Shown in pieces: positions 21,608 to 44,952 of a DNA stretch of 64,000 nucleotides (positions are counted from its first letter, which is position 1; every line of letters starts with the position of its first letter). The notes under the pieces were generated by a model. It did no database searches. It was not told the origin of the DNA and worked only from the letters and a program-made list of their open reading frames with translations. A program made the translations under genes and the position numbers. The stretch is from Pyrinomonadaceae bacterium. GTDB lineage: Bacteria > Acidobacteriota > Blastocatellia > Pyrinomonadales > Pyrinomonadaceae. The DNA lies in assembly GCA_036507195.1 (NCBI GenBank), contig DASXQM010000273.1:1055-65054 (forward strand). Direction: 5' to 3'.

Positions 21608-24325
21608 ATGACTTTGACAAACTCGCTACGCCCGCTCTCTGTTTCCTGGCTCTGGTTGTTGTCTATCCTGGCGATTACCTGTACGGCGCAGGCGCAGTCA
21701 GCTTCAACCAGGCTCAATTCCAACCTGCTATCCGAATTCAAGTGGCGTTTGGTTGGGCCATCGAGCCCGGCGGGTCGCGTTTGGCAGGTGGTTGGCGATG
21801 AGAACGATCCCAAGACATTTTATGTCTGCACCGCGGGTGGAGGCTTGTGGAAGAGCACCGACAACGGCACGACACTGGTTCCTATCTTCGACAATCAAAC
21901 GTCTGCTTCGACCGGCGCGGTTGCCATTGCAAAATCGAATTCGAATCTGGTTTGGGTGGGATCAGGTGAGCCCGCCAACACACGCGCAAACTCGTGGGGC
22001 GATGGCGTCTATAAGTCGCTGGATGGAGGCAAGACCTGGGCGCACATGGGACTTGGCGATAGCCGACAGATTAGCGCCATCGTAATTCACCCTACCAGGC
22101 CAGAGACGGTTTACGTGGCCGCGATGGGTTTTGAGTGGGGCCGCAATAGTGAACGCGGGATTTTCAAGACCACAGACGGCGGCAAGAATTGGAGCAAGAT
22201 TCTCTTTATTAACGACACCACCGGCTTCATCGATCTACAAGCCGACCCAAAGAATCCGGAAGTGCTTTACGCCGCCGCGTGGCAGCGCTTCCGCTTCGGT
22301 GGCGGGGATATGGCTGAGTCGGGACCGGGAAGCGGTCTCTACAAGACCAGCGATGGCGGCAAGAAGTGGACAAAACTCACTAACGGTTTGCCCAAAGAGG
22401 AAATGAGCAAGATTACAGTTGCGGTAGCGCGCAACAATTCGAATATTGTTTACGCGGCGATCCTCACTGGTGAACCGGCTTCGGGCGGGAAGAGAACGAT
22501 CGATACTGGCGGCGTGTTTCGTTCAGTGGACGGCGGCAAGAGCTGGCAGCGCATGAACCCGACAATGACCAGCTACTACTACGATCGCATCAATGTCGAT
22601 CCGGGTGACGACAATCGCATCTGGATGCCCGTGTTTGATCTGATGGTCTCCACAGACGGCGGCAAGACGCTGGTAAAATCGAACATAAAGCACGTGCACA
22701 ACGATGAACATAGCCTCTGGATCGACCCTGATGACCCACAACACTTGATACTTGGCGGTGATGGCGGCGTCAATATTTCCTACAATCGCGGCACTACCTG
22801 GCAACAGGCTGTCCTCCCGATTGGCCAGTTTTACGAGGTCGCAGTCGACAATCAGGATCCTTACTACGTCTACGGCGGCATGCAGGACACCGGCCACTGG
22901 CTGGGGCCGAGCCAAACTTATGACAACGAGGGGATAACCAACCACGATTGGATCAAACTGCGCTTCAACGGTGACGGCATGTCGATCCACCCGGACGAAA
23001 GCGATCCAAATGTCATCTACATGGTGCAGGAGTTTGGGAACTTCTCCCGGCTCGACCTGCACACATGGGATCGCCAGGAACTTCTGCCCGACGCCGCCGA
23101 AGCGAAGAAGCGCGGGCTGCATGCGTTTCGTTACGACTGGACGCCGCCAATGATAATTTCGCAACACGATCCGGAAGTGCTTTATCTCGGCAGTAATTAT
23201 CTATTCAAGTTTACAAAGCGGGGCGAGAAGTGGGATGTTGTGAGTCCCGATCTGACTGCGCAACAAGACAGGGAGTTGAAGGGCAACAGGAAGGAATACA
23301 CCGGCTATCATAGTTATGGCGCGTTGTTCTCGATCGCCGAATCGCCACTCGACGCCAAAGTGATCTGGACGGGTGCAGACGATGGACCAGTTTATGTTAC
23401 CCGCAACGGCGGCTCCTCGTGGACAAACGTCACGGAAAACTTGCCGGCTGGTGCGCCGACCTGTGCGGTAGTTGGAGAAATCGAAGCATCGCGGTTCGAC
23501 AAAGGCACTGCCTACGTCGCCTACGACTCCCACACTCGCGAAGATCATAAGCCTTATTTCTACATGACTAACGATTATGGCCAGACCTGGTTCGATATCA
23601 CTGGTGATTTGCCCCACGGGGGATCTAGCTATGTGATCCGGGAGGATCCGGTTAACCCCAACCTGCTGTTTGCGGGCACGGAGTTTGGCGTCCACTTAAC
23701 GATCGATCGGGGCCGGCATTGGATTCAATTAAAAAATAATCTGCCCACGGTAGGTGTGCGTGCGATGGTCATTCAGGCAAGGGATCATGATCTGGTTGTC
23801 GGAACATTTGGCCGCGCCATCTGGATTACTGACATTGGGCCCTTTGAACAGATGAGCGCCCGTTTACTCGAACAACCTGCCCACCTCTTCGACGTTGAGC
23901 CCGGAACTCTCTATAAGACTCGTTACACTTACGGGGCCACGATCGAGGAGTTGAATGGCGATATGTTTTTCCGCGCGGAGAATCCGGCCTACGGAACCGT
24001 CATCACTTACTATTTACGCGAAAACGCTGGTCCGGAAGTGACGCTTACTATCAGAGACACAAGCGGCAAGGCCGTTCGCACGCTTAAGGGCCCGGGTGCG
24101 GCGGGAGTGCATCGTGTTATTTGGGACCTCAAACGGGAGGATAAGGTGACCGATGAGGAAGCGACGCGAGCCAGAGTCGAAACACTTTCGGAACGGGATG
24201 CGCTCGCCTGGGTTCGCCCTGGAGATTACACAGTCATTCTGGAGTTGAGTACAGGCTCGTTGAAGACTGAAGTAAACGTGCGGAAGGAACGACAGGGGGT
24301 AAAGCGAGTGGAAGTCAGAAAATAG
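21608..24325 (+). CDS. secreted BNR/Asp-box repeat protein (sortilin/VPS10-like or GH74-like double propeller)
   Basis: Signal peptide. At least 9 Asp-box motifs (SxDxGxxW): STDNGTT, SLDGGKTW, TTDGGKNW, TSDGGKKW, SVDGGKSW, STDGGKT, TRNGGSSW, NDYGQTW and IDRGRHW. Confidence 0.8.
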   Translation: MTLTNSLRPLSVSWLWLLSILAITCTAQAQSASTRLNSNLLSEFKWRLVGPSSPAGRVWQVVGDENDPKTFYVCTAGGGLWKSTDNGTTLVPIFDNQTSASTGAVAIAKSNSNLVWVGSGEPANTRANSWGDGVYKSLDGGKTWAHMGLGDSRQISAIVIHPTRPETVYVAAMGFEWGRNSERGIFKTTDGGKNWSKILFINDTTGFIDLQADPKNPEVLYAAAWQRFRFGGGDMAESGPGSGLYKTSDGGKKWTKLTNGLPKEEMSKITVAVARNNSNIVYAAILTGEPASGGKRTIDTGGVFRSVDGGKSWQRMNPTMTSYYYDRINVDPGDDNRIWMPVFDLMVSTDGGKTLVKSNIKHVHNDEHSLWIDPDDPQHLILGGDGGVNISYNRGTTWQQAVLPIGQFYEVAVDNQDPYYVYGGMQDTGHWLGPSQTYDNEGITNHDWIKLRFNGDGMSIHPDESDPNVIYMVQEFGNFSRLDLHTWDRQELLPDAAEAKKRGLHAFRYDWTPPMIISQHDPEVLYLGSNYLFKFTKRGEKWDVVSPDLTAQQDRELKGNRKEYTGYHSYGALFSIAESPLDAKVIWTGADDGPVYVTRNGGSSWTNVTENLPAGAPTCAVVGEIEASRFDKGTAYVAYDSHTREDHKPYFYMTNDYGQTWFDITGDLPHGGSSYVIREDPVNPNLLFAGTEFGVHLTIDRGRHWIQLKNNLPTVGVRAMVIQARDHDLVVGTFGRAIWITDIGPFEQMSARLLEQPAHLFDVEPGTLYKTRYTYGATIEELNGDMFFRAENPAYGTVITYYLRENAGPEVTLTIRDTSGKAVRTLKGPGAAGVHRVIWDLKREDKVTDEEATRARVETLSERDALAWVRPGDYTVILELSTGSLKTEVNVRKERQGVKRVEVRK

Positions 24326-24715: not shown

Positions 24716-26692
24716 ATGCCCGAGTCTCGCACCGTGCCCTACGGTTCATGGAAATCGCCGATTACCTCCGACTCAATCGTCGGTGGTTCTATAGGTCTGT
24801 CCCAGCCCCTGATTGATGGTGCTGATGTTTACTGGGTTGAAATGCGTCCTACCGAAGCTGGCCGTAGCGTCATCGTGAAACGGAATGCGCTTGGCGTAGT
24901 AAACGATGTCACTCCGCCGCCCTTTAACGCGCGAACTCGGGTACACGAATATGGCGGCGGTGATTACACAGTGGGAGACGGCGCGGTTTACTTTTCAAAC
25001 TTTTCCGATCAGCGACTGTATGAGTGGAAAGGGGAAGCGGAGCCACAGGCAATTACTCCCGTCGCCGATCTTCGCTATGCGGACGCGGTTATTGATCGGA
25101 CGCGTGCGCGGTTAATCTGCGTTCGGGAAGACCACACGGTTGCTGGTCGCGAAGCAGTAAACACTTTGGTGGGCCTCAAACTCGTGGGGAATGAAATTCC
25201 GGCTGAGACAGGCGGAGTCTCGAACCGGGCAGCCCGGCAGGGGTGCTTGTTGGTATCGGGCAATGATTTCTATTCGTCGCCGCGTGTGAGCCCCGATGGC
25301 TCCCAGCTGGCATGGCTTACATGGAACCATCCCAATATGCCGTGGGATGGCAGTGAACTTTGGGTCGGCCGATTCGGGGTCGATGGATTATTAGAAACCA
25401 GTGAACGCGTGGCAGGCAGCACTGATGAATCAATCTTCCAGCCCGAATGGTCTCCCGAGGGCGTGCTTTATTTTGTTTCGGATCGAAGCGGCTGGTGGAA
25501 TCTTTACCGGATGAATTCAGATGGAAGCATTGAGCCGCTATGCGAAATGCAAGCTGAGTTTGGCATGCCCCAATGGGGCTTTGGCATGTCGACATATGCT
25601 TTCGAATCGGCCGAAAGAATTGTTTGCGCTTACATCGAAAACGGTATTTCGCGGCTTGCGCTGCTCGATACGCGCACGAAAAAGTTTGAACCGATCGTTT
25701 CTCCATACACGGACATAAGGTTTGTGCGCGCCTTGCCAGGGTATGCAGTGATGCGGGTCGGCTCGGCGACTGAAGCAGCCTCAATTGCAAAGCTTGATTT
25801 GGAAACGAGGACGTTCGAAGTACTTCGCCGCTCCAGCAGTCTTGAGATTGATGCAGCCTATCTCTCAACTCCGCGCGCCGTGGAGTTTCCTACCGAAGAT
25901 GGACGGACAGCCCACGGATTTTTTTATCCGCCGAAGAATCGCGAATACAACGCACCCGTTGGCGAGCGACCGCCGCTATTGGTCGAGAGCCATGGCGGAC
26001 CTACAGCCGCGGCGGCAACCGCTTTGAGTCTTCCTATTCAGTATTGGACCAGCCGAGGCATAGCCGTGCTGGATGTGAACTATGGCGGCAGCACCGGGTT
26101 TGGGCGTGCTTACCGGGAAAGATTGAAGGACAGGTGGGGAATCGTTGATGTTGACGATTGCGCCAACGGAGCACGCTACCTGGTTGGGCAAGGTGAGGTC
26201 GATGGAGATCGCCTGATGATCACGGGCGGAAGTGCCGGTGGTTACACTACGCTTTGCGCGCTCACCTTTCGCGATACGTTCAACGCTGGAGCGAGCCACT
26301 ATGGCGTCAGCGATGCCGAAGCCCTGGCAAAAGAGACGCACAAATTTGAATCGCGTTACCTTGATGGACTCATCGGGCCTTATCCGGAAAAGCGGGAGAT
26401 TTATGTTAAACGTTCGCCAATCAACTTCACGGAGCGGTTGTCTTGTCCGGTGATCTTCTTTCAGGGACTCGAGGACAAAGTAGTACCACCAAATCAGGCG
26501 CAGACGATGGTAGACGCACTGCGGGCGAAAGGAATTTCGGTCGCGTACCTTGCCTTCGAAGCGGAGCAGCACGGGTTTCGTCAGGCGAAGAACATCAAAC
26601 GTGCGCTTGACGGCGAACTCTATTTTTATTCCCGGGTGTTTGCTTTTGAGCTTGCGGAGCCGGTGGAACCGGTAGAGATTGATAATCTATAG
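24716..26692 (+). CDS. S9 family serine peptidase (prolyl oligopeptidase/dipeptidyl aminopeptidase-like) with N-terminal beta-propeller
   Basis: Catalytic Ser motif GGSAGGYT, downstream D and H region (GLEDKVVP...EQHGF), and a long N-terminal propeller-like region. Confidence 0.88.
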
Positions 26693-26758
26693 ATCTTGAG
26701 ATCTAAAATTTCAAATCTCAGCCTTAAAAGCGATCGCGGTATTCCCCTGACCGGACGC

Positions 26759-29227
26759 CTACTGCGCCGGCTGGTCCGCAATCGTCGCCGCTCCGCCGCC
26801 ATGATCGCCGCCGCGAAGCACCGAAGTTTCATCAATAAAGTAAGACAGCCGTCCAGACTCTCCATAGGTAACAGGCACGGCGATGGCCTCAAATCCCTTT
26901 CCCGAGATAGTCACCTCAATCCGGTAACCATATTTTTGCAGCATCTCCCTGTTGACAAGATTCTCCGCAATCAAGTCATCAAGAGAGCCGAAACGGCCGT
27001 CACCTTTCGTAGCCTGGTAAGTGGCTTCAGCGACCGCGATGGTACGCAAGGAGCTTTTCGCTACCGCTTCGTTGGTTTGGAGCGGCACCTGAGTCGCTTC
27101 GCTCGAAGCCTGGGCAATTATCATTTGCAGTAGATTCTTCGGCACATGCAACTCGTGAAGCGGACCTTGCCCTTCGTTGGTAAGTGCATAAGTGAGGGGG
27201 TCGATAACGGGGTTCACCCGGGACAAAAAGTCGCTCATGTTGTCATTGACTGGAGCGCCACTTCCAGCGGGAGAGATATATTGCCTGACCAGGCCCGGAG
27301 CGACATAAACCTGGCCAAGTACTTGTCGCGGCTGCCAACGTATGAAGTTCCTAAAGTGGCTATCGGATGAAAGCGTCTGATGGTTCACATAGGCATCTAC
27401 CACGTGTCGTGTGGCAGCGGCATCCGCCGACACGACCAGGAAATCCCCCAGGAAAGCGTAGGCTAAAACGTTTCCGTAGGAAGTGATTTCAGCTCCATCG
27501 CGCTTTTCAGTCTGAGCAAAGAGATTCGCGCCTTTGAATCCCAACGATTCAATAATCTTTGGTATTAGTCGGGCAACCGCTTCCCGGTCCTTAACCGAGA
27601 TGGCGATCACGGGAGAGGGATCAGCTGTTCGCGCATTTCTTTTCTCGCCGTCTTCTGGTGTGGGTTCTTCCGCGCCCGCGTTAAGTGGAGACGGCGTTGG
27701 ACTCGGCACTTTCTTTGCGAGCGCCAGAGCAAATTCATTTCCCAGCAGAGGCAGGAGGTCGTCTTTGATCTTCAAGCCAAGTTTCTTTTCATAGATTGCA
27801 AAAGGCGATTCGGGCGGTGAACTTTCTTTGACGGGTTGGTTTCGGTATTTTCTTGATTGCTCGTCTGCGTTGGCAATCGCCTTCACCATCCCGTCGTAAA
27901 CTTGCGGGTAATCGAGCGAAACGCTGACGAAGAGATCCGTGTCGGCAGGAAAAATATTGGGCGACTCCGGCACGAATGCCGGGCCGGAAACGAACTGGGG
28001 AACAAAAGGAATCGCATTGCTCTTGTTTTCGGCGCCATTGACTATCAACGTGCGAAGCACATAAGCATCGCCTTCAAAAACCACAGCCGCGCTAACCGCT
28101 TCCGGCCATTTGCTAACGCCGCCAAACAGAGCGCCATAAAGCGAGAACATCATTGGGCCCACTGCCTCCGTGGCGGGCTGTGGCTCGCTCGACAAGGTAG
28201 CGTTGCCGGATGGTTGCGGATCAGACGACGTCACTACCAGCGTGGGTTGCGAAGTTGACGATGGTTCCGGCTGTTGCTGCTCTGCGACCGTGGGTTCAGT
28301 CATCTCTGGCGCCAGATTGACGGGCGCCTGTTCTGCTTTCGGATTGGCGGTCTGGATCTCAATTTGTTTTTGTTCTTCCTCTTCCCACTTTTTCTGGCGC
28401 TCTTTCTCCTCCTTTTCAATCGACTTCAAGTCGACGTAGAGAAAGAGCGACTCAGACGCAAAACGATTTCGTGCCAGGGTGAAGTTCTGATCTTCTTCGA
28501 GCAACCTGCTGGCGGGCGGCCTTAGACTTCGAAACGTGAAGGCGGTATCGCTGATCAAAATCAGAGCGCCAGCCTGTTTCATCTGATAAGGGGACAGGGC
28601 CGGCGCATTTTCCTTTTCCGGAACGGTCCTTACGCTCCTGGTGGCTGTTCGAGAAACGGATGGCGGGTCGTTGATTCTCCCTTGTCCGCCGGTTGGACCA
28701 CTAGACGCAACGGTTGCCGGGCTCGGCGCCACCACTGGAATTGGGGACGCTGTTGGCGCAGGTGCAGGCGCCGGCAAAAGGGTGGGAAGAAAGCCGCGCA
28801 ACTCCGGGTAAAACTTCTTAGCCTCCTCTGGCGAAGAAAACTCTATAGCAACCAGAACGGTTGGAAGGTTGGGTCTTGACGGCCAACCTGCCACCAGCAT
28901 TCGTGAGCTGGCGAGCACGTCGGCGTGGGCGTTAAGCCATTTCACAAGGATCTTGAATTCTTTTGGCGGGCCACCGAGTTTCATCACCGGATCGAGTAGA
29001 TCATTAACCGCAGATGATCGGATCAATCCGCCAACGCCTCTTATCTCGCAATAGACTTTGTAACTGTCGGCGGAGAGCAGCGTTTCGAAAGTCGGAGAGG
29101 GTTCAGGGACTTCTGCCGGCGCCGGTTTCTTAGGCGCCGTATTACGTCTCTGTTGTGCGAGTAAAGGCGAGACGACAACCAGAAAAACGAGCAATAGTGT
29201 AATCAGGCGCTGAATTGATTTGAGCAT
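26759..29227 (-). CDS. large secreted protein, DUF3352-like, with Pro/Ala-rich linkers and a C-terminal pilin-like globular segment
   Basis: Signal peptide. LGNEFALAL and GDFLVVSAD segments parallel those in the anti-sigma C-terminal domain. C-terminal SLRTIAVAEATYQATKGDG resembles pilin head domains. Confidence 0.5.
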   Translation of the reverse strand: MLKSIQRLITLLLVFLVVVSPLLAQQRRNTAPKKPAPAEVPEPSPTFETLLSADSYKVYCEIRGVGGLIRSSAVNDLLDPVMKLGGPPKEFKILVKWLNAHADVLASSRMLVAGWPSRPNLPTVLVAIEFSSPEEAKKFYPELRGFLPTLLPAPAPAPTASPIPVVAPSPATVASSGPTGGQGRINDPPSVSRTATRSVRTVPEKENAPALSPYQMKQAGALILISDTAFTFRSLRPPASRLLEEDQNFTLARNRFASESLFLYVDLKSIEKEEKERQKKWEEEEQKQIEIQTANPKAEQAPVNLAPEMTEPTVAEQQQPEPSSTSQPTLVVTSSDPQPSGNATLSSEPQPATEAVGPMMFSLYGALFGGVSKWPEAVSAAVVFEGDAYVLRTLIVNGAENKSNAIPFVPQFVSGPAFVPESPNIFPADTDLFVSVSLDYPQVYDGMVKAIANADEQSRKYRNQPVKESSPPESPFAIYEKKLGLKIKDDLLPLLGNEFALALAKKVPSPTPSPLNAGAEEPTPEDGEKRNARTADPSPVIAISVKDREAVARLIPKIIESLGFKGANLFAQTEKRDGAEITSYGNVLAYAFLGDFLVVSADAAATRHVVDAYVNHQTLSSDSHFRNFIRWQPRQVLGQVYVAPGLVRQYISPAGSGAPVNDNMSDFLSRVNPVIDPLTYALTNEGQGPLHELHVPKNLLQMIIAQASSEATQVPLQTNEAVAKSSLRTIAVAEATYQATKGDGRFGSLDDLIAENLVNREMLQKYGYRIEVTISGKGFEAIAVPVTYGESGRLSYFIDETSVLRGGDHGGGAATIADQPAQ

Positions 29228-29396: not shown

Positions 29397-32177
29397 TCAC
29401 CTCGCCACTCGCCGCCAGACATTCGCTTCGCCTTCACTCGTAATTAGACGCTTGACCTCGCTGTATGCTGCTGCGTATGTGGCCCGCATGTCATTTGCCG
29501 ACTTTGCGAGTCTGTTGTCACTAAGATGCTTCTCAATCTCGTCTGTCGACATGCGCTGCCGGGGTTGGTAAGGCGCCACCAGCCGTCCCTCGCCCGCCAC
29601 ATGCAATGCCAAACCTTCAGCAAGCCAGCGCGGCGCGCGCCCCCGGCTAACAGTGTCGACTAAAGTATGTACGAGTTCATGGCGCAATGTTGTTTCGAGA
29701 ATTCGACGGCGCTTGAGAGTTTCAAGCGGTTGGAGCTCAATCCGACTTCCTTTTGTAGCCGCTGCCGCCCAGGCAGGTTGTCCTGTGCGACCAACAAAGT
29801 CGCCGGTCGTTTCGTTAATGAAGATTTGCAGAGCAGGGAATTGAGCGGTAATTCCAGCAGCGGCTACGCGCGCGACTAAAGATTCACGGGTCGACTGGAG
29901 AAAGCTTAGCAGTCCTTCAATCTCCCGTTGGCTCACAGTGTTCGGATAGTTAATGTGAAGGCCTTCGCTGGAGAGAGTGCGACGAATTGTCCTGCCGCTT
30001 TGACGTTTGGAAACGGGGCTTGGTTCCACATCAGATTCGCCAATGAAGTTGACTTTGTGGTTCCACATCAGATCCGCGGAAGCTGATGAACGATTTTCGT
30101 TAGCGATACGCGTCGAAGGAAAATACTTCGCGAGTATCTGCCGGTAATCTGTCCCGCGCGCCGCCATGACGTGCGCCCCTTCCTGACAAAGTCCCAGGCC
30201 GTGACCAAACCCACTGCCGCGAAATACGAAATTCGAACCAGAACGCGAAATCTTGAAACGCGAACTTTTAAGCAGGTTCCAACCAAGCGCACGGCCGATG
30301 ATGATTTTTAAGTCCCATCCTTTGACCGTGATTCGGCGATTGCCTTCCACGGTAATCACCTCGGCTCGACCACTGGCGTCGGTCCGTAACACACTTACGT
30401 CGAGAAGTCGCTCGCCAACGTTCGTCCGCGGATCAGATTGAAGCGCCTTGAGCATTTGCTTTTCGGAAATCACATCGGTCCAACTGTTGTGCGCCTCGCC
30501 TGCGCAGTACTCATCGTGTACGCCTCTCAGGTAAGAAGGCGCGTTACCACCCCACAGCGTCGCCATATTTGCAGTTGCCCCACCACACGAGGCGCTGAAG
30601 TAAGAATCAGCGAGTTCATCATTGCTATCACGCAGCACTTCGCCTTTAGTCGATTCGACCGCCTCGATAACCGCGGAGGAAGCACCCGCAAGCGAACCTG
30701 AATCAACCGATCGATATCTTTGGCAGTGGGTTGTGGTGCAGAAGTCGTAGCCATCCCTCCGGTGCCGGCCAAGATTTTTAAGGACATACGTGCGGCTGGC
30801 GACGGCCAGAGCTTTCAGTGCTTCGGGCTCGCTTTCCATGCTGCCCTCAGCCGCGACCACTCCGCGCACGTAGTCTTCAAGCGGCATTGAGCGAGTGACG
30901 TTTTCGCTAACGAGGTGAACAGTGATTGTTTGAGATTTCAAATTTGAAATCTCAGATTTCTCAACCGAGAGTTGAGATCTGAGATCTGAGATCTCAGATT
31001 GGGATCTGCCATCTGAGATCTCAGAATGTGCATAAGCATCGAAGATAGGTCGCGCGACTTCCGCGGCTTCGGAGCCATGAGCTTTCGCCAGAAAAACGAG
31101 TACAGCGAGCTTTACTCTTTCCGGCGCGAACTGCGATTCCTCTTTCGCGTCGTCATTCAATTGGGACGCAAAACCAACAAACCAACCCTGCGTGCGATAG
31201 CCGTTGAGCTCGGTGGCTGTACCCGTCTTGCCAAAAACATAAATTGGTAGTGAATAGAGGCTGGCCGTTTCGGCGGTGCCATAACGAACCGCGCCGCGCA
31301 TCCCTTTAAGAATCAAGCTTCGGTGGTCGTTGCTAATCATGAGGCGCGCCCGAAGTTGGGGAACAAAACCCGCCGCTGGGGCAATCCTGGGAGTAAATAG
31401 ATAACCTCCGTTCACTATGGCTAAATAAGCGTTGATGAGTTGAATGGGTGTGGCCCGTAGGTAATCGCCTTCGCCGATCGCATTCTGCGAGTGCCAGTCG
31501 CCGCGCCGCAGGAGGCCTTGCCCCTCGCGATCGGCGTTAACGCCGCTGGGTTTACCAAAGCCAAATTCGTTGAGGGTGGAATTAAAGTCAGACTCCGCCA
31601 GCCGCTCGCCCACTTTGCCGAAATAGTAGTTGCATGAATAAGCAATCGCCTCCGTCGGATTCAGAGGAGGCAAGTCGCGCGGGTGAGAACAGGTGGTATG
31701 AAAATCCTCGTGGGCATACTTTTCGCGGCACGCATTGCGTGATTCTTCGTCAATCACGCCGGAGCGCAGCGCGGCCAAGGCAGTGAAAGGCTTTATGGTC
31801 GAGCCGGCCGGAAGGTTTTCTCCGAAAGCAACTGTTGGGTTGACGACGGCGCGGACGCGTCCGGTTTGCGGATCCATAATTATGACCGCACCGCGTCGAT
31901 CGCCGAGGGCCAGCGTTGCCGCGCGTTGCAGACTCTGATCCAGGTTAGCCTCATAAATCGAGTCAGCCGATGAAGCTGATAAACTCGAATGCCGTGTGGC
32001 GTGGAGCACAATGGCCCAACCAAAAATCAAGACGCAGATTGTGACGGCGCCACAAACCAGCAGGCGCACGGGAGATCGAGCTACTTGTCCGGGGACCCTG
32101 CGTTGCAGGCTATCGCTTGCGATGCCTGCGCTCCCAGGATTTGCCATACCTGGTTTCAATGAAGGCTGCACCTGCAT
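29397..32177 (-). CDS. tri-domain envelope protein: penicillin-binding transpeptidase domain, SpoIID/LytB lytic transglycosylase domain and peptidase-MA-like HExxH domain
   Basis: N-terminal TM helix. TP motifs STIK, SCN and KTGT. SpoIID motifs ALKALAVASRTY, THCQRY, SASCGGAT and GHGLGLCQEGA. C-terminal HELVH...WLAEGLA. No GT51 motif. The ATG overlaps the upstream stop (TGATG). Confidence 0.8.
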   Translation of the reverse strand: MQVQPSLKPGMANPGSAGIASDSLQRRVPGQVARSPVRLLVCGAVTICVLIFGWAIVLHATRHSSLSASSADSIYEANLDQSLQRAATLALGDRRGAVIIMDPQTGRVRAVVNPTVAFGENLPAGSTIKPFTALAALRSGVIDEESRNACREKYAHEDFHTTCSHPRDLPPLNPTEAIAYSCNYYFGKVGERLAESDFNSTLNEFGFGKPSGVNADREGQGLLRRGDWHSQNAIGEGDYLRATPIQLINAYLAIVNGGYLFTPRIAPAAGFVPQLRARLMISNDHRSLILKGMRGAVRYGTAETASLYSLPIYVFGKTGTATELNGYRTQGWFVGFASQLNDDAKEESQFAPERVKLAVLVFLAKAHGSEAAEVARPIFDAYAHSEISDGRSQSEISDLRSQLSVEKSEISNLKSQTITVHLVSENVTRSMPLEDYVRGVVAAEGSMESEPEALKALAVASRTYVLKNLGRHRRDGYDFCTTTHCQRYRSVDSGSLAGASSAVIEAVESTKGEVLRDSNDELADSYFSASCGGATANMATLWGGNAPSYLRGVHDEYCAGEAHNSWTDVISEKQMLKALQSDPRTNVGERLLDVSVLRTDASGRAEVITVEGNRRITVKGWDLKIIIGRALGWNLLKSSRFKISRSGSNFVFRGSGFGHGLGLCQEGAHVMAARGTDYRQILAKYFPSTRIANENRSSASADLMWNHKVNFIGESDVEPSPVSKRQSGRTIRRTLSSEGLHINYPNTVSQREIEGLLSFLQSTRESLVARVAAAGITAQFPALQIFINETTGDFVGRTGQPAWAAAATKGSRIELQPLETLKRRRILETTLRHELVHTLVDTVSRGRAPRWLAEGLALHVAGEGRLVAPYQPRQRMSTDEIEKHLSDNRLAKSANDMRATYAAAYSEVKRLITSEGEANVWRRVAR
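30931..31026. repeat. gagatct/gaaatctc word-palindrome element embedded in frame in the fusion CDS
   Basis: tgagatttcaaatttgaaatctcagatttc...gagatctgagatctgagatctcagat... It encodes SEISDGRSQSEISDLRSQLSVEKSEISNLKSQ between the TP and SpoIID domains. Confidence 0.8.
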
Positions 32178-33004
32178 CAAGCCGCCTCATTTGCCGGCCC
32201 GGGTAACGGATTTGTCGATAATTGGGCCAGGGCACGCACAGTGATCGCCCAACCAAACAAAGTCAGGGCAAACACTACTACCAGCCGAACGATCAGCAAT
32301 GACAGCTCCAGCCAGGCATGCCTCGTTTGAGTGGTTTTGAAAAGCAGAAAGTAGGGAGCGACTCCGAAGACAAGAAAGCCGGCTATGTAAATAAGGACCG
32401 ACTGCGGCGCGAAAGCTCGCGCGAGATGTGTAATTGCCTTCTTCATAGCCGAGCCCAGCCCTTCATGCACAGTCGCGAGCCACAAGTGAATTGCCGCAAG
32501 CGGCAGGACGAGGCCGAAGGCCAGATAGCGAACAGTTGAAAGCAGTGCGAGTTTCCAATCGATCGGTCGCTCGGCGCGTGGCCGGTTAGCCGCCATGGCG
32601 ATTCGATGAGAAACATCCGGATCGGTGTTGTTAACGCCAACTCCCCAGCTGGCTTGCGCTTTTGCCAACAGATAAGCGATGAGAACCGCCAACGCGATTA
32701 GCGGTAAACTAACCAGGATCAACTTCCAGAAACTGGCGAGCGATCTTCTTAGCAGGGAGCTGACGGTCTCTCCGTCCGTTTGGCCGGCAACCATACTTTG
32801 GAGCACGAAGAAGAGCAGCGGTGCGGCAATCGCCAGCGCAAAAGTCAGGATCACCTGCCCGACGCTGGCTTCTCGAACTGCCACAAAGAAGTAAAGAGCC
32901 GCCAGCAGCGAAGCGTAAACAATTGCGAGTAGCAGCATCGCTCGCCAGTTTGTAAACACTTTGCGCGCGGCGGTGATGATTGAGTGGAATGTTTCAGTCA
33001 GCAT
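32177..33004 (-). CDS. polytopic membrane protein, function unknown
   Basis: About 6 hydrophobic helices. Preferred start is ATG 33004, 8 nt after GAGGA. The longer track ORF (to 33067) begins inside the REP element. Confidence 0.6.
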   Translation of the reverse strand: MLTETFHSIITAARKVFTNWRAMLLLAIVYASLLAALYFFVAVREASVGQVILTFALAIAAPLLFFVLQSMVAGQTDGETVSSLLRRSLASFWKLILVSLPLIALAVLIAYLLAKAQASWGVGVNNTDPDVSHRIAMAANRPRAERPIDWKLALLSTVRYLAFGLVLPLAAIHLWLATVHEGLGSAMKKAITHLARAFAPQSVLIYIAGFLVFGVAPYFLLFKTTQTRHAWLELSLLIVRLVVVFALTLFGWAITVRALAQLSTNPLPGPANEAA

Positions 33005-33033
33005 CAATTTGTCCTCGAAAAGAACAGCGACCA

Positions 33034-33105
33034 GTTTAGAAAGCGGACTTGTCCGCCCCTCGTTCACTTAGACGCAAAGCTCAGGCGGCTAAGTCCGCTT
33101 TCTAG
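33034..33105. repeat. double-hairpin REP-like element (GTTTAGAAA-GCGGACTTGTCCGC ... GCGGCTAAGTCCGC-TTTCTAG) inside the A2M operon spacer
   Basis: Read directly. Same architecture as the element at 12277-12332. Confidence 0.8.
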
Positions 33106-33136: not shown

Positions 33137-36100
33137 TCATTTCCTCTCCAGGAAATCCAGCTTCCCGCTTGCAGTGTTCGACTGCGTGGCCGGCTTGTAC
33201 ATTAACTCGGCGCGTGCCGGCGCAACGCGAAACTGTCCCGGCACCTGGACGCGCAGCGCATATTGCAGTGTGTTGCCGCCGTCGAAGTAGTCCAGGAAAA
33301 AGACCGTCCGGTTATCGCGAAACTCACGGGAACTGTACCAGTCGGACCAGTCGTGACCGGAGGTGTAATCGAGATTCAGATTTCCGACGCTGTCAACCTG
33401 TTCTGCGCCGGCCGGAATCGGATCTTCGATCATCAAGTGACGCGCTTTCGCGCCGTTTAGTTTGAGCCTGACGACAAGCATGTCACCCGAATGAATCTCG
33501 CCGCGCAATGGTTCGGTCACCCACTTGAGTTTGTAGCCGTCTTCGACGACCTTGAGTCGAAGATATTCGCGGGTGAGATTCAACTCCGCCGAGCCGCGGG
33601 CCGCAACGTTCTCCTCCCCAGTGTAATAATCGAGCGATGACGAAAAATAGATCATGCCCTTGCCACGCTTGACGACTCGAATTTCATTCGTTCCGGTTAC
33701 CTCCCCAGCCTTGCGGTAGATGGAGAATGTTTGTGAAGCGGCTGCGGAGGAAACGTGCTGAGTAAGCACGTTTTCGCCGTTTAGGTAAACCTCCATGTCG
33801 TAATCGGGCGATAGTTCGCGACTCACTTTGAGGTAATCGATGAGTCCGAAAATCGCGAACGCCGTATCCTTCGTCGAAGACCAGTAATAACCTTTGCCAC
33901 GATTCGAAACCAGCCAGCGCGCGACTCGCGGCAGCAGTGCGCTGTCAGGCTTAATGCGAGCCAGCGCTCTTAACGAGAGCGCCGTTGCTTCCGTATCGTT
34001 TGATTCAGCAAAGTCGAGCATCGCTTTGCGGTGTGACTCCCAGTGGCCGGAGAAATCATCGGCCGCGACGGTTCGCTCAATCTCAGCGGCCACCTCACGC
34101 GCCCGCTTATCGTCCCGGCGTTGTTTCAAAGTCAACGCCAGCAGCGCGCGGCCATACGGTTGCAGGTTGCCGCGCTCGCCAAAGATCTTCTCAAGGTGAC
34201 GACTATCGGCGTCACCACTTTCTTCGAGCGCGTACACCATGAAGGCACGGGTTTCCAAATCGATCTGCGTTCCTGCTTCAGTCGTGCCCGAATCGAGCAT
34301 CTGTTTCAACTTCTCGCGTCCACTACTAATCCGATTATCGTCCACTTGATAATCGTTCTGTTTTGCCAGTGTCAGTCCACTGACAACGTATGCGGTCATA
34401 AAGGGATCGCTCTGGTCATCTTTCCACCAGCCCCAGCCGCCGTCGTTGTGCTGGTAGGCGTAGAGCCGATCCAAACCTTTTTGCACTTTCTTCGGAAGAT
34501 CGTTTGCGTTTCTTATCGACGACGTCTTCACGTCCTTCAACGCCTGCGAGACGATTACGTTGGGAAGAAAGCTCGACATCGTTTGCTCGGTGCAGCCGTA
34601 CGGATAAGTGGTGAGGTAATCGAGCGCGCCAAACAATGTGCTGGCGACGGAGGGCGCGACGTCGATTCGGAAACTACGCGCACGCGCATCGGCGCTCTGT
34701 GGCAGATTCAGAGAAAAAGTCTTCTCGGCATTCTCATCGGAGAACGCCGCTGACTCATTCTTAACTTGATGAAGGCCGCGCGGCACCACTATCAAGGGCA
34801 ACTCCACTGCGTCTGATTCGGTATCCGTGAGAGCTTTAGCGAGGAGCTTGATCTCGCCCACGTCTGGGGCAGAGATTTGCCAGTCAATGCGATGTTCGCC
34901 CTGTTTGCCGATCGTGACTGTCTGTTTCCCGGAATTCTGCAGTTGTGCTCCGTTAACCTCCAACGAAATCTGCGTTGGCTTATCAGCGTTTAGATAGTTG
35001 TGCACGATTCCCGACAGCGTGACCGTGTCACCCTGCGTAACAAAGCGGGGCGTCTCGAGTCGCATGATCACGTCCTTGCGCGCGACAACTTTGTATTTTG
35101 TGGCGCCAACCTTAGTGTCTGCCGTGACGCCGCGCGCGGTTGCGCGCCAGGTAGTTAAGTTGTCAGGCAGGTCAACCTTGACGGTGGCACGCCCGTCAGC
35201 GCCCGTCACCACGTCGGGCTGCCAGAAGGCGGTGTCTTTGAAGTTTTTCCTGATAGTCGGTTGCACCAGATCCCCTTCATTCTTAAAGTCGGCAAGCTGG
35301 TAGGCCGGCTTGTTCTTCGCGAGATCGATGGGTTTATCGCCCGCGAAGCCGGTGAACATGTAGCTGATTGAAAGATGCGTTTCGACGCTGTTATACCGCA
35401 TGCCATAAAACTCGGTCTTGATGTTGCCCGAGTAATCGGGCGAGACGCTGTAAATGCTTTCATCGACCACGCCAAGACTGACTTCGGCCCCGGACACCGG
35501 CGCGCCATCGGCATTACGTGCCAGGATCGTATAAGACGCCGTCTCGCGGGGCTTGTACTCCTTCTTGTTCGAGATGATTTCGAGATTCAGCATCTTGTCG
35601 CGCGCGGGCACGACCAGCCGCTGATCGCTCGTATACATGTCGCCGCCTTTAACGTAAGAAACATTGAGAAATACGTTGGGCGCATAACTAGCCTGGATGG
35701 GAATGTCGAGCACGATTGATCTGCCGGGCGAGCTGACGTGCTGGACAGACATCACCGTCGTCAGTTCGGTGCTGACCAGGAGGTGAGCATTGTCAGTCGG
35801 CAGGATCGCCAAAACGTGAGCAGTCTCGCCGGGTTTGTACGACTTCTTATCGGCGACGAGCTTTATTGAATTGTAATCTTCGCTGTAGTAGGAAGAATCG
35901 GACCATGGGTATTGCCGGTCGGTAACCCAGAGATAGCCGCCAATTGAAGCCACCGGCCGGCCGTTCTCATAGATCACCGTCTTAATCGAAATGTTGCCGT
36001 CCTCAGTGGTTGTGTAGTCGTAGATGGCCTGGCCTTGCGAGTCAGTCTGTGCGTCGGCGTAAGCTATCTGGCGCTCATGCATTTCATACTCTGGATAGGA

Positions 36101-38071
36101 ATACTCGTCATCCTCCGCCTGCTTTTCCTTTTTGGTCCAGGTGCGCTCAACGAACTGTAATTGAACTTTCGTGGAGACTGGCCGCCCTTCATAATCGGTT
36201 GTCGTTACATGGATCTTGGCGATGTCCCCTTTGTTGTAGACGTAACGATCGGGGTTGGCGTTCGCAACGATGGTGCCACGAGTGGCGACAAAGCTCGCGG
36301 CGCCTTCAATGGTCCGACGAGCCGAGTCCGTCACCTGGGCTTCGAGACGATAGCTGTAATCGAATGTGTCGGTCTCTTCTGTTTGCGGGACCTGGAACTC
36401 GACATTCATGTGGCCACGTGCGTCGAGAGTGCCCTCGCTCTCCTGCACCATGTCGTCGCCACCCCTATAGAATTGCGAATAGTCATCCTCAGTCTCCGAC
36501 TCGTCACTTGTTTCGCCAGAATCGTCCATACCGATCCCCCAGGCGTAATACCGTGAGCGATAGATGTAATACTTCACTTCCGCATTGGCGACAGGCGAAC
36601 CGAAGAAATAGCGCGCGTCGACAGAAAAATTGGCTTTCTGGCCGGCTTGCACAAATTTTCCCGGTGCTAAAACTGTCACCTTATATTCCGGCTTCTTATA
36701 TTCCGCGACTTCGAAACTGCCGCCCGCGGTGCCGCCGCCAACTTCCGCGGCGATGCGATAGCTGCCCAGCGGCGCCGCTTCCGCAATGTCTATCTCGCCG
36801 TTGAAGGTGCCCCGAGGAGAAATCGGCAGTTCTTTGTTGAAAATGTTAGCCCCGTTTGGATCTTCAATGGTAACGTTCACAGTGTCGTCCGTGATGGCTT
36901 TGTATGCTCCGTTATCATCGACGGCGCGAACGATTCCTTTGAAACTGACTTTATGAGTTGGTCGATAAACGGGACGATCGGTGTAGATGTACCCCTTGAT
37001 GTTCTCGCCGTCTTCATCTTCATAGTAACCGCCGAAATACATTGAGCCGAGATCGGAGATTGCAAAGTTGTTGCTCTGTTTGGCAAGAATCAGCAGAGAC
37101 TCGGAATCAGTTTCCTCCGGCGCCGCGGCCTCCGCATCAGCCTCCACGCCACCGCCCTCATTGCCGGCGTCTGCTGCAGGCTTTTTCTTTTCGACCTTCG
37201 TTCTCAGAATGCCCTGATTGTCTGTGACGCCCGAGGCAACGGTCTTTTTCTCTTTCACGATTTCGACCTGTGCCCCCGGTCGCGGCTCACCGGTTTTGCG
37301 GTCCACCGTGTAAATGAGCAGTTCTCCGTCGCGAGTGGTCTTGTCGATCATGGTCAAGTCAGTGACCACCACTACCGTGTAAGCACGCAAATCATTCTCA
37401 ACTGCTTCGATCAGGTAGACGCCCGGCGACCGTTTGCCTAACGGAATCATGCGCTGCTCATATTCGTCTTCCAGCGGCGGCAAAGGCTCGCGCCAACTAC
37501 TGACGAGCAGATCGGGATTCAGCAATGGCACGCGAGCGTAGTCGGAAACATTCAGTGGCGTTCGGATTGGGTCTGCTTCCTTGCGAAATTTTTGATTAAA
37601 CGTCTGGCGCGAATCGTGCTGAAGCTGTCCCCGGACGAACGTTTTGATACCTGAGTAGGCCCAACGCTTAAGACCGCGCACCTTTTCCAGAAACGATTTA
37701 CGATGTGGCAATGAGGTGGCAACCTCTTCCTCTTCATGTTCTCCCATCTGATGAGGATTCTTGAGTTGGGTGAAGAACTTGCGCGGATCCTTCACCTGAT
37801 AAACGCGGAAGTCCAGATGGTCGACACCCTGGTAGTCGACCCACAGGCGGGCGTTGTCGCTGGTGCCATAAGTGCGATGAGTTGACAGCGAAAAATAAGG
37901 CTTGCTCGAGGGGCGCCTTTCGGCTCCGGAATAAACTGGCTCTGTATTGGTTTCCGGCTTCAGTTTTGCGCGCGACCGGAGCGTGGCAATGGTGAGCGCG
38001 CCGGCAATGGCCACGAGATAAATTAAAGAAGTGGTCAGGGCGCGATAAGAACGAGAGTTCATTTCAAACAC
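33137..38071 (-). CDS. alpha-2-macroglobulin family protein with intact thioester, membrane-anchored
   Basis: 1644 aa. Thioester motif YPYGCTEQTMSS (CTEQ at 34583-34594). N-terminal TM anchor, repeated MG-like domains, and a C-terminal receptor-binding-like domain. Confidence 0.9.
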   Translation of the reverse strand: MFEMNSRSYRALTTSLIYLVAIAGALTIATLRSRAKLKPETNTEPVYSGAERRPSSKPYFSLSTHRTYGTSDNARLWVDYQGVDHLDFRVYQVKDPRKFFTQLKNPHQMGEHEEEEVATSLPHRKSFLEKVRGLKRWAYSGIKTFVRGQLQHDSRQTFNQKFRKEADPIRTPLNVSDYARVPLLNPDLLVSSWREPLPPLEDEYEQRMIPLGKRSPGVYLIEAVENDLRAYTVVVVTDLTMIDKTTRDGELLIYTVDRKTGEPRPGAQVEIVKEKKTVASGVTDNQGILRTKVEKKKPAADAGNEGGGVEADAEAAAPEETDSESLLILAKQSNNFAISDLGSMYFGGYYEDEDGENIKGYIYTDRPVYRPTHKVSFKGIVRAVDDNGAYKAITDDTVNVTIEDPNGANIFNKELPISPRGTFNGEIDIAEAAPLGSYRIAAEVGGGTAGGSFEVAEYKKPEYKVTVLAPGKFVQAGQKANFSVDARYFFGSPVANAEVKYYIYRSRYYAWGIGMDDSGETSDESETEDDYSQFYRGGDDMVQESEGTLDARGHMNVEFQVPQTEETDTFDYSYRLEAQVTDSARRTIEGAASFVATRGTIVANANPDRYVYNKGDIAKIHVTTTDYEGRPVSTKVQLQFVERTWTKKEKQAEDDEYSYPEYEMHERQIAYADAQTDSQGQAIYDYTTTEDGNISIKTVIYENGRPVASIGGYLWVTDRQYPWSDSSYYSEDYNSIKLVADKKSYKPGETAHVLAILPTDNAHLLVSTELTTVMSVQHVSSPGRSIVLDIPIQASYAPNVFLNVSYVKGGDMYTSDQRLVVPARDKMLNLEIISNKKEYKPRETASYTILARNADGAPVSGAEVSLGVVDESIYSVSPDYSGNIKTEFYGMRYNSVETHLSISYMFTGFAGDKPIDLAKNKPAYQLADFKNEGDLVQPTIRKNFKDTAFWQPDVVTGADGRATVKVDLPDNLTTWRATARGVTADTKVGATKYKVVARKDVIMRLETPRFVTQGDTVTLSGIVHNYLNADKPTQISLEVNGAQLQNSGKQTVTIGKQGEHRIDWQISAPDVGEIKLLAKALTDTESDAVELPLIVVPRGLHQVKNESAAFSDENAEKTFSLNLPQSADARARSFRIDVAPSVASTLFGALDYLTTYPYGCTEQTMSSFLPNVIVSQALKDVKTSSIRNANDLPKKVQKGLDRLYAYQHNDGGWGWWKDDQSDPFMTAYVVSGLTLAKQNDYQVDDNRISSGREKLKQMLDSGTTEAGTQIDLETRAFMVYALEESGDADSRHLEKIFGERGNLQPYGRALLALTLKQRRDDKRAREVAAEIERTVAADDFSGHWESHRKAMLDFAESNDTEATALSLRALARIKPDSALLPRVARWLVSNRGKGYYWSSTKDTAFAIFGLIDYLKVSRELSPDYDMEVYLNGENVLTQHVSSAAASQTFSIYRKAGEVTGTNEIRVVKRGKGMIYFSSSLDYYTGEENVAARGSAELNLTREYLRLKVVEDGYKLKWVTEPLRGEIHSGDMLVVRLKLNGAKARHLMIEDPIPAGAEQVDSVGNLNLDYTSGHDWSDWYSSREFRDNRTVFFLDYFDGGNTLQYALRVQVPGQFRVAPARAELMYKPATQSNTASGKLDFLERK

Positions 38072-38115: not shown

Positions 38116-39057
38116 TCAGTCGAGGATTTTCAATCTAAAGTAGCCGAGGAAATTGGAATTACTTTCCGTCGGCCGCCAGCGTCTGTTTGGGTGATGATCG
38201 AGAACCGCAAGCTCAACCTTCTTTACCGTTCCTTCGTCGGTCGGCGAGGAGCCGGTGTGATAGACCACCCAGCCGCTTGAGCGGTCGGTGCTCAGCTTTG
38301 CCCGTCCGAGGAAAATCATTACGTGGTAGGGAAATTTCTGCACCCAGGGCTGGTAGAAAAAGAGAAGATCGCCCGCTTCGGCGAAACGGCGATCGCGACT
38401 AATGAATTTGGCGTTGAAGCTTTTGAGACTGCGTGCGTCGGCGAATTCCGAAAAGGTTCCGTTAGACAGATCGCCATCTTTATATGAGCCGAAACTGGTG
38501 CGGAAGAGTTTTTCGCCCAGCGGGCTCTGCTCGAGGTTGTAGCGGGCAATATCAGGTGCGATCGCCGTGAAGCCCGGGCCCATCTTTTGAAACCATACGC
38601 GATCGTGACGACGCAGGGCTTCCCGCCAGGCAAAGCGTACCAGCCCGGCGCAGTCTCTTTGCTCCGCATTCCATTGATCGCTCAAATGGTAAAACTGTAC
38701 TTCGGCGATCAACGTGAACCACTGGCGAAAATTCTCGCGGTCCATAAAACTCTGCAGCTCAGCGGCGTCAGGTATGCCGTCGTTGTCCGAATCCAACGAA
38801 ACGGAATGTGTTGAGGAGTTGGTCGTGGCGTGGTTGTAAAGCGCGGAGTTCTTGCTCGTATGCCTGAGGTTCGCGGAGTATTCAGTTTTCCGGTTCCTGG
38901 CCAGAGAGAAGTAAGATGCCAGGAAAACGAGAATGAAACAAAGCAGTAGCGCTACACCAAACTGTCGCCGTTTTATTAACGCGAGCATGGGGGAATTATT
39001 GGTCCTGGTTGATAACTCTACGAGGCGGCGCTTAACAGTCGGCGGCCATGTTAACAC
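38116..39057 (-). CDS. DUF1175 / MagC(YfaT)-like NlpC/P60-fold protein
   Basis: DCAGLVRFAWREALRRHD (NlpC/P60-like Cys), PYHVMIFLG (His), VVYHTG, and an N-terminal TM helix plus a DSDNDGIPD Ca-binding-like motif. Start is either GTG 39057 or ATG 38988. Confidence 0.7.
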   Translation of the reverse strand: MLTWPPTVKRRLVELSTRTNNSPMLALIKRRQFGVALLLCFILVFLASYFSLARNRKTEYSANLRHTSKNSALYNHATTNSSTHSVSLDSDNDGIPDAAELQSFMDRENFRQWFTLIAEVQFYHLSDQWNAEQRDCAGLVRFAWREALRRHDRVWFQKMGPGFTAIAPDIARYNLEQSPLGEKLFRTSFGSYKDGDLSNGTFSEFADARSLKSFNAKFISRDRRFAEAGDLLFFYQPWVQKFPYHVMIFLGRAKLSTDRSSGWVVYHTGSSPTDEGTVKKVELAVLDHHPNRRWRPTESNSNFLGYFRLKILD

Positions 39058-44946: not shown

Positions 44947-44952
44947 GTTGTT

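Follow-up and report, generated by a model that had tools for sequence, protein, structure and literature searches.

In a 64,000-nt stretch of DNA from a Pyrinomonadaceae bacterium (GCA_036507195.1, contig DASXQM010000273.1, positions 1,055 to 65,054 of the forward strand; hereafter the window), a single gene (29397..32177, minus strand) encodes a 926-aa protein in which a membrane anchor, a penicillin-binding-protein (PBP) transpeptidase (TP)-type domain, a SpoIID/LytB lytic-transglycosylase-type domain and a gluzincin-type metallopeptidase domain follow one another on one chain. This fusion is genuine and conserved, and not an assembly artefact. By profile comparison the protein is homologous to YfaQ/MagE, and it holds the YfaQ/MagE position in an operon of the Yfa/Mag type, which includes an alpha-2-macroglobulin (A2M) gene. 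We lean, with slightly better than even confidence, towards seeing it as the membrane-anchored periplasmic module that repairs or remodels peptidoglycan (PG) in an A2M envelope-defence system; its enzymatic activities, its topology and its role in repair are what we infer for it.

The list of open reading frames (ORFs) and the translation place the gene on the minus strand, with its stop codon at 29397-29399; the plus-strand translation of the same interval is riddled with stops. A preliminary description of this DNA had reported one 926-aa ORF with an N-terminal transmembrane (TM) helix, and both were borne out by translation and hydropathy, with the strand corrected to minus (all features of the gene given below lie on that strand). 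The SxxK/SxN/KTG, SpoIID and HExxH motifs that it quoted were all found in the translation: STIK at residue 126, SCN at 181, KTG(T) at 317, ALKALAVASRTY, THCQRY, SASCGGAT, GHGLGLCQEGA, RHELVHTLV at 832-840 and WLAEGLA at 851-857. The start codon is an ATG, with a TTG one codon 5' of it. The hydropathy scan gives a single N-terminal TM helix at aa 39-57 (32007..32063), preceded by a basic and poorly conserved tail (aa 1-38); the N-terminal region is 7% identical across the family. By the positive-inside rule this tail would be cytoplasmic and the catalytic domains would face the periplasm, an orientation favoured because the basic tail precedes the helix and because all partners of the protein bear signals or anchors.

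A search of 5.8 billion proteins gave 1780 matches. The 120 listed homologs are all full-length (848-1035 aa, 61-95% identity), all carry both PF00905 and PF08486, and come from JGI, ENA, NCBI and Logan assemblies of Pyrinomonadaceae, Blastocatellia and other Acidobacteriota; databases already label this architecture 'SpoIID/LytB domain-containing protein'. One genome per GTDB species was scanned with family-specific peptide patterns; 142 proved to encode a relative, and the best 80 loci were fetched. All 80 belong to Pyrinomonadaceae, Blastocatellia or other Acidobacteriota, and in each the match reaches residue ~925 except where the contig ends. In the alignments the linkers between the domains differ widely in length and sequence, always in frame. 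A stop or frameshift at the linkers was sought across the homologs and none was found, so the single-polypeptide fusion proposed in the preliminary description holds; it is genuine because the in-frame ORF recurs in the 120 listed homologs and in 80 species-level genomes despite variable linkers.

The predicted active sites are conserved along with the architecture. All 120 listed homologs retain GSxxKP, YSCN, GK(T)GT, CxxTHC, GHGLGLCQ and HExxH…WxxEG. The Transpeptidase and SpoIID domains are also present in 25 further cluster representatives at 28-55% identity, and HExxH in 26 of the 27 distant representatives checked. Across 26 sequences in that identity range the invariant residues are G125, S126, K129, S181, C182, N183, K317, T318 and G319, together with E444, H833, E834, H837, W851 and E854. 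Mean identity to the window protein is 31-41% in the domains and 5-7% in the linkers and N-terminus. These comparisons support the view that the signatures of all three active sites are intact and that purifying selection on them is strong.

The TP-type domain (aa 96-383; 31029..31892) is defined by Pfam, NCBIfam, a PDB match and motif invariance. Pfam Transpeptidase matches aa 96-339 (E 5.8e-42), and SxxK (S126-T-I-K129; 31791-31802), SxN (S181-C-N183; 31629-31637) and KTG (K317-T-G319; 31221-31229) are each invariant in the diverse alignment. Neither GT51/Transgly nor the PBP_dimer/pedestal domain (PF03717) has a Pfam match in the protein; the Pfam scan and the translation thus confirm the earlier observation of a complete motif set without a GT51 motif. 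In NCBIfam the TP half of pbp2_mrdA comes out on top (145 bits vs a cut-off of 455), the domain lying far under every NCBIfam equivalog cut-off, and the top PDB match is MrdA (8zpc, E 1.9e-18), with SpoVD and FtsI next. Like these class B PBPs (PBP2/MrdA, SpoVD, FtsI), whose MrdA member gives its top hidden Markov model (HMM) and PDB matches, the domain has SxxK, SxN and KTGT. Unlike them the protein is without the N-terminal pedestal, and so without an obvious SEDS partner interface: the TP domain begins ~35 aa past the TM helix, and just the last ~45 residues before the MrdA TP domain align. Also unlike class B PBPs, it carries an extra Cys-rich insert (aa 150-165; 31683-31730), in which C150 and C163 are invariant and H165 is near-invariant. 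The Cys pair is common to the window protein and YfaQ (C81, C91/C92) and could represent either a disulfide or a small metal site particular to this PBP-fold lineage. The insert also holds a second HExxH (HEDFH, aa 156), probably fortuitous. Sequence alone does not separate cross-linking from hydrolysis by a TP domain of this kind.

The SpoIID/LytB domain (aa 416-692; 30102..30932), defined by TIGR02669 and PDB matches, is recognised by curated models: TIGR02669 (SpoIID_LytB) scores 190.1 bits against a cut-off of 83.3 over aa 429-692, covering model positions 4-269 of 270, and Pfam SpoIID matches aa 426-515 (E 1.1e-23). The SpoIID assignment made earlier is therefore one that HMMs detect. The domain aligns end to end with PDB 4RWR, 5I1T and 5TXU (E about 1e-25 to 4e-24; 9e-26 for 4RWR, 3e-24 for 5I1T/5TXU). 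The candidate catalytic Glu, E444 (30846-30848), aligns with the catalytic Glu of 4rwr and 5i1t and falls on E101 of C. difficile SpoIID, while C480, H484 and C485 fall on the zinc ligands C140, H145 and C146, and H472 is the candidate equivalent of the zinc ligand H134. E444 and H472 never vary in the diverse alignment (28-55% identity), in which C480, H484 and C485 are conserved to at least 90%; the domain also bears SASCGGAT and GHGLGLCQ. Mutagenesis of C. difficile SpoIID showed that the aligned Glu and zinc-ligand residues are required for activity and zinc binding (PMC6221140), and SpoIID homologs cleave peptidoglycan in non-sporulating bacteria as well (PMC6635528).

The window protein thus shares with the SpoIID of B. 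subtilis and C. difficile a full-length domain above cut-off in which the catalytic Glu and the zinc ligands align, and with the SpoIID-SpoIIM-SpoIIP engulfment machine the tie of SpoIID to peptidase modules and a polytopic membrane protein. It differs in being no sporulation protein (155.5 bits with the sporulation SpoIID equivalog TIGR02870, under its cut-off of 234.75), in being fused to other enzymes and in belonging to a diderm Acidobacteriota host; moreover, its partner peptidases are PBP-fold, gluzincin and NlpC/P60-like instead of the SpoIIP amidase.

The third domain (aa 730-926; 29400..29990) is a minimal gluzincin-type metallopeptidase domain, as judged from a domain model, Foldseek and residue invariance. 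Its HExxH (H833-E-L-V-H837; 29667-29681) and the third-ligand candidate E854 on the following helix (29616-29618) are invariant at 28-55% identity. With the C-terminus, Peptidase_MA_2 scores 18.1-18.7 bits against a gathering score of 32.4, and a flagellinolysin HExxH model gives E 4e-5, far under its cut-off. Sub-threshold Peptidase_MA_2 matches occur in 6 of 26 relatives (best E 1.6e-6), and searching PDB sequences with the C-terminal profile gave no meaningful match. Residues 725-926 were modelled separately using a family alignment, with pLDDT 89.2 and pTM 0.86; in this model HExxH lies on helix 100-120 and the WLAEG Glu on the next helix, 126-137 (model numbering). A Foldseek comparison of the domain model with the PDB returned gluzincin catalytic domains for all of the best 50 matches (best E 8.3e-5, TM 0.42-0.61), namely M9 collagenases and M1 aminopeptidases (IRAP, LTA4H, ColAP, tricorn F3). 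The predicted structure therefore supports a gluzincin fold at the fold level. Of the peptidase-MA-like domain proposed earlier, the gluzincin fold stands, and membership by the Peptidase_MA_2 gathering score does not (18 vs 32.4 bits). Like the gluzincins of clan MA(E) (M1, M9, Peptidase_MA_2), the domain has the HExxH helix, a Glu on the next helix and an N-terminal beta-sheet subdomain; unlike them it is just ~200 aa long, falls under the Pfam gathering score and has no GxMEN or other exopeptidase motif.

Structure prediction, which had been suggested as a check on three folded domains, gave a divided answer: the peptidase domain folds confidently alone, but the full-length model is poor (pLDDT 56.7, with the TP domain below 50, from a shallow alignment) and was excluded from the fold search. 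The statement that the three activities normally sit on separate proteins was also only partly upheld, since TP and SpoIID on one chain are standard in a large family; what stands is that here all three domains share one chain.

That large family includes YfaQ/MagE. In E. coli K-12 the operon reads yfaA(DUF2138)-yfaT(DUF1175)-yfaS(A2M)-yfaQ(tandem DUF2300)-yfaP(DUF2135). A 2025 preprint predicted YfaQ to be transpeptidase-like and SpoIID-like, and reported wider cells and envelope/PG-linked phenotypes upon deletion of yfaQ (10.1101/2025.02.11.637708). E. coli YfaQ (L001:6149-7798) scores 27 bits with Pfam SpoIID (threshold 23) and 303 bits with DUF2300. MagE of P. aeruginosa (PA4488, COG5445, 61.7 kDa, with a signal peptide) is identified as the YfaQ ortholog by its size, its place in the operon and the 54-56% identity at which Pseudomonas sequences match. 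We built a YfaQ/MagE alignment from Enterobacteria and Pseudomonas sequences for profile comparison, and hhalign aligned it to the distant-relative profile of our family with probability 98.1% (E 1e-13) over 310 colinear columns, spanning aa 118-516 of the window protein and aa 51-397 of YfaQ; against the single YfaQ sequence the probability was 91.8%. In the alignment GSLWK of YfaQ stands opposite GSTIK (SxxK kept), SCG opposite SCN (Asn lost) and KTW opposite KTG (Gly lost), and the SpoIID Glu is kept. Both the SxxK Ser and Lys and the SpoIID Glu are retained in YfaQ/MagE. No DUF2300 (PF10062) match was found in the window protein, even at E <= 10 on sub-domains.

The C-termini can also be compared. 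YfaQ/MagE of Enterobacteria and Pseudomonas carry an invariant HEYLH (H519-H523) with an invariant Glu 16 residues on, a possible candidate for a minimal zincin site. In hhalign the gluzincin domain places this HEYLH and Glu onto H833, E834, H837 and E854, an alignment that is not significant (probability 3% and 11.7%). The two proteins are thus alike in their colinear TP-like and SpoIID-like parts, the Cys insert, SxxK and the SpoIID Glu, in their A2M and DUF1175/MagC gene partners, and in a C-terminal HExxH with a Glu 16-17 residues later. YfaQ/MagE (COG5445) is ~550 aa long, with a cleavable signal peptide, SCG, KTW, DUF2300 and no recognisable full gluzincin domain, and its partner A2M is without a thioester; the window protein, in contrast, has 926 aa, a TM anchor, the canonical SxxK/SxN/KTG, a predicted SpoIID zinc site and a ~200-aa gluzincin domain, and its partner A2M has CTEQ.

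These comparisons bear on the proposal, drawn from the gene's placement after an A2M gene, that the protein replaces PBP1C. Its TP domain matches E. coli PbpC by BLASTP only at E 0.05, which is not significant, and PBP_1c is absent from its NCBIfam matches. The window A2M is nearer to YfaS (148+116 bits) than to ECAM/YfhM (71+69 bits), yet it keeps the CxEQ thioester that YfaS and MagD lack, and stands between types I and II as published for bacterial A2Ms. The profile homology, the aligned motifs and the operon type therefore identify the protein as the YfaQ/MagE counterpart and not a PBP1C substitute; as an evolutionary statement, replacement of PBP1C is wrong. The resemblance to the type I ECAM/YfhM-PBP1C pair is that of a membrane-tethered thioester periplasmic A2M encoded beside a penicillin-binding protein, which would fit the same logic of trapping proteases and mending the wall. 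The differences are the lack of GT51, a TP domain unrelated to PbpC beyond the general fold, an A2M nearer YfaS with a TM anchor instead of a lipobox, and MagC-type neighbours.

The gene lies in a block on the minus strand that begins with a DUF1175/MagC gene (NlpC/P60-like; 38116..39057; Pfam DUF1175 E 4e-65), followed by the gene for the 1644-aa A2M (33137..38071; Pfam MG2, A2M, A2M_BRD, TED and bMG10), whose thioester CTEQ lies at aa 1160 (YPYGCTEQT) and which has an N-terminal TM anchor in place of a lipobox. Next comes a 296-aa polytopic protein with 6 predicted TM helices (TM296; 32177..33067), whose stop codon overlaps the ATG of the TP-SpoIID-gluzincin gene (TGATG), so that the two are translationally coupled; an 822-aa secreted DUF3352 protein with a signal-like N-terminus (26759..29227) ends the block. 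By tblastn of the window neighbour proteins against the best 80 loci, MagC was found in 58 of 80, A2M in 71, TM296 in 74 and DUF3352 in 64. Where the contig suffices, the conserved order is VWA, DUF1175, A2M, TM296, the TP-SpoIID-gluzincin gene, DUF3352 and a convergent S9 peptidase. Even among four distant relatives (31-36% identity; one from Bryobacterales), an A2M gene and a gene for a small polytopic membrane protein adjoin the TP-SpoIID gene in three, two of which also have the MagC gene; these distant clusters are convergently oriented, and the fourth relative has no A2M within 10 kb. The persistence of this synteny supports, at the level of gene order, a functional link between the protein and A2M.

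Only the MagC, A2M and YfaQ-like genes of the block equate with Yfa/Mag genes, because TM296 and the DUF3352 protein are unlike YfaP and YfaA: BLASTP found no similarity between the DUF3352 protein and YfaA (DUF2138) or between TM296 and YfaP (DUF2135), and a lenient Pfam scan of the operon neighbours found neither DUF2138 nor DUF2135. TM296 has no match in Pfam or NCBIfam, and no SpoIIM match even in the lenient Pfam scan; it could be a SpoIIM-like scaffold. Polytopic proteins of 195-250 aa follow the A2M gene in the distant relatives, with weak similarity to TM296 (E 0.001).

Natural variants show that the peptidase module is separable. A search with the C-terminal-domain profile found many proteins of 230-280 aa. 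In two loci (L088, 3833-6831; L091, 5000-7837) the genes encode A2M, a ~250-aa membrane protein, a TP-SpoIID protein of 662-666 aa and a separate gluzincin of 276-278 aa with its own N-terminal TM helix. In two others (L089, 432-9181; L090, 514-10102) MagC and A2M are followed by a membrane protein of ~235 aa, a 251-255-aa gluzincin bearing a signal or anchor, DUF3352 and an S9 peptidase in convergent orientation; this is the synteny of the window minus TP-SpoIID. Because fused, split and peptidase-only states all occur, the modules act as associated units, and the peptidase's tie to A2M is no looser than that of the wall enzymes. The split versions, and the fragmented genes of an error-ridden long-read locus, might also be taken to mean that the fusion arose by an assembly or sequencing error joining separate genes. 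We regard this as extremely improbable, since the fused ORF comes from many independent projects and the split versions, having their own TM anchor, are real alternative gene structures. The long-read locus itself (L092, 1-7963) was rejected as a split variant: it is a metagenome contig ridden with frameshifts, in which A2M is also in pieces, and it cautions against taking every 'split' version as real.

We propose that the protein is a type-II (N-in) inner-membrane-anchored enzyme facing the periplasm, with three catalytic modules on flexible low-complexity linkers: a class-B-like TP without pedestal, a SpoIID module with a C. difficile-type zinc site and a ~200-aa gluzincin. It would be co-transcribed with MagC/DUF1175, the thioester A2M, the 6-TM protein and DUF3352, and the operon would form a periplasmic envelope-defence unit against foreign hydrolases and proteases attacking the wall. 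A2M would trap incoming proteases; the SpoIID module would trim or open damaged glycan strands; the gluzincin, with the NlpC/P60-like MagC, would remove or trim peptide stems or clear protein; and the serine-acyl TP module would handle D-Ala-D-Ala stems by re-cross-linking or trimming them. The P. aeruginosa mag operon is needed for resistance to two type VI secretion system (T6SS) effectors that target PG, VgrG3 (a glycan hydrolase) and Tae1 (PMC12663445), and because of this protection a cut-and-repair role on PG is plausible, by analogy, for the window protein. The 'cut and re-stitch' enzyme of the preliminary description is therefore retained in part: three catalytic-type domains are there and cutting and repair are plausible, while re-stitching is not readable from sequence.

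Several points weigh against this proposal. All three activities are predicted, as they are for other family members, the peptidase domain reaches no curated HMM cut-off, and the poor full-length model gives no basis for inter-domain geometry. The pedestal couples class B PBPs to SEDS polymerases, and because it is lacking here the TP domain may be a DD-peptidase or a binding module and not a cross-linker. The relatives in E. coli and Pseudomonas have degenerate SxN and KTG motifs, so the core function of the family may dispense with transpeptidation. SpoIID of the studied Firmicutes requires stem-peptide-free glycan produced by an amidase (PMC6221140), and the window protein has no amidase-fold domain. 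Finally, the peptidase-only loci L089 and L090 imply that the three modules are no obligatory unit, and the peptidase may serve A2M and not the wall.

Some of these points would fit a purely degradative machine of the DMP (SpoIID-SpoIIM-SpoIIP) kind, in which the TP fold opens cross-links as a DD-endopeptidase or carboxypeptidase, stems are stripped by the gluzincin and/or MagC, SpoIID digests the denuded glycan and TM296 is a SpoIIM-like scaffold, for wall opening or turnover and no repair. In sporulation SpoIID acts only after SpoIIP has removed the peptides, the pair being held by the polytopic SpoIIM (PMC6221140), and here SpoIID is fused to two peptidase-type domains, one of them a TP domain without a pedestal, and is coupled translationally to a 6-TM protein. 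However, the TP domain is nearest to the biosynthetic class B PBPs (MrdA, SpoVD, FtsI) and not to the class C hydrolytic PBPs, TM296 is without a SpoIIM Pfam match, it is difficult to see why a defence operon would carry a wall shredder that nothing controls, and the mag operon protects against PG-degrading toxins (PMC12663445); we consider a machine without repair possible but unlikely. Rather less likely still is that the gluzincin acts on A2M and not on the wall, maturing, activating or recycling it, for instance by cutting its TM anchor or bait region or by breaking down the cargo it has trapped, with TP-SpoIID mainly tethering the complex to PG. The peptidase is the more constant partner, kept without TP-SpoIID in L089 and L090; in published work deletion of P. 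aeruginosa magE lowers MagD and leaves higher-mass unprocessed forms of it; and the YfaQ/MagE C-terminus has the invariant HEYLH and downstream Glu. Yet the alignment of this tail to the gluzincin domain is not significant (11.7%), MagE is published as mostly cytoplasmic and not stably associated with MagD, and the invariant catalytic residues of TP and SpoIID argue against mere tethers.

The same residues bear on a non-catalytic scaffold, whose three domains would bind PG or protein to position the A2M complex, as YfaQ/MagE may do. YfaQ/MagE reads SCG for SxN and KTW for KTG, so that probably at least one family branch does not transpeptidate; but in the branch of the window protein the catalytic residues of the three sites are all unchanged from 28 to 95% identity while the surroundings diverge, which makes a scaffold very improbable. 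A penicillin-binding fold and an HExxH peptidase in one membrane protein, together with weak HMM matches to BlaR1 and class D beta-lactamases, also recall the BlaR1/MecR1 sensors, in which the PBP-like domain would sense beta-lactams or muropeptides and the zinc peptidase would relay the signal. We rejected such a sensor on scores, topology and context, and give it scarcely any weight: blaR1_generic reaches 24.9 bits against a cut-off of 400, there is no Peptidase_M56 match, the peptidase, no M56 membrane domain, would sit on the periplasmic side together with the sensor, the short cytoplasmic tail shows no conservation, and no repressor gene is adjacent.

The two linkers of the protein are hypervariable, each with 5% identity. 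Linker 1 (aa 384-415; 30933..31028) consists of low-complexity SEISDLRSQ-type repeats and varies in both length and sequence, and linker 2 (aa 693-729; 29991..30101) shows large alignment indels. A palindromic element, TCTGAGATYTCARATYTSARATCTCA, has 8 matches in the window vs 0 expected by chance, located by motif count at 30929-31025, in linker 1, and at 26695-26722, between the S9 peptidase and DUF3352 genes. The in-gene palindromes encode the linker repeats SEISDLRSQ and SEISNLKSQ. Elsewhere the element is rare, occurring in 2 of 87 loci, both times within the homologous linker, and its appearance is that of a REP-like palindrome which flexible linkers tolerate in frame. Many homologs have similar peptide repeats in the linkers and in one TP-domain loop.

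Further genes surround the block. Upstream lies a VWA-domain gene (39708-40760, minus strand; syntenic in 55 of 80 loci), and ~4.5 kb upstream of the operon are genes for a sigma-54-dependent response regulator and a HAMP histidine kinase (43600-46560, minus strand). Downstream, on the plus strand, are the convergent S9 peptidase of the prolyl-oligopeptidase family (24716-26692; syntenic in 49 of 80 loci) and a Sortilin/BNR-repeat protein (21608-24325), which is syntenic less often. A scan for promoters and terminators gave counts that did not exceed the shuffled expectation.

Bacterial alpha-2-macroglobulin operons have been known since 2004. The TP-like and SpoIID-like core had already been predicted for YfaQ, and ours is not a categorically new system. 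A full-text literature search for SpoIID and macroglobulin together returned no related paper. In the literature searched we did not find described the complete and conserved gluzincin third domain, the canonical catalytic motifs of this branch, the association with a thioester A2M in an operon of the Mag type, the variants in which the peptidase is split off or stands alone, or the invariant HExxH of YfaQ/MagE.

The family shows a YfaQ/MagE subunit with all signatures intact, namely the PBP serine site, the SpoIID Glu with its zinc site and the gluzincin site, so that a vague 'unknown envelope factor' becomes three concrete, mutable active sites. The natural split and reduced variants reveal which modules travel together, an invariant and previously unnoticed HExxH is flagged in E. 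coli YfaQ and Pseudomonas MagE, and a thioester A2M in a Mag-type operon blurs the dichotomy between type I and type II. It is conceivable, though we hold it only tentatively and think it improbable, that the protein preserves the catalytically intact state of YfaQ/MagE and that the zinc peptidase is the true core partner of bacterial macroglobulins, because the peptidase persists as a separate or lone gene when TP-SpoIID is split off or lost and because the HExxH tail of YfaQ/MagE is invariant. If this were true, operons of the Yfa/Mag type would be 'trap, digest and mend' machines, in which A2M catches hydrolases as they come in, a dedicated gluzincin brings A2M to maturity or breaks down its cargo, and TP-SpoIID excises and re-cross-links damaged PG; Mag-dependent resistance to PG-targeting T6SS effectors would then be explained.

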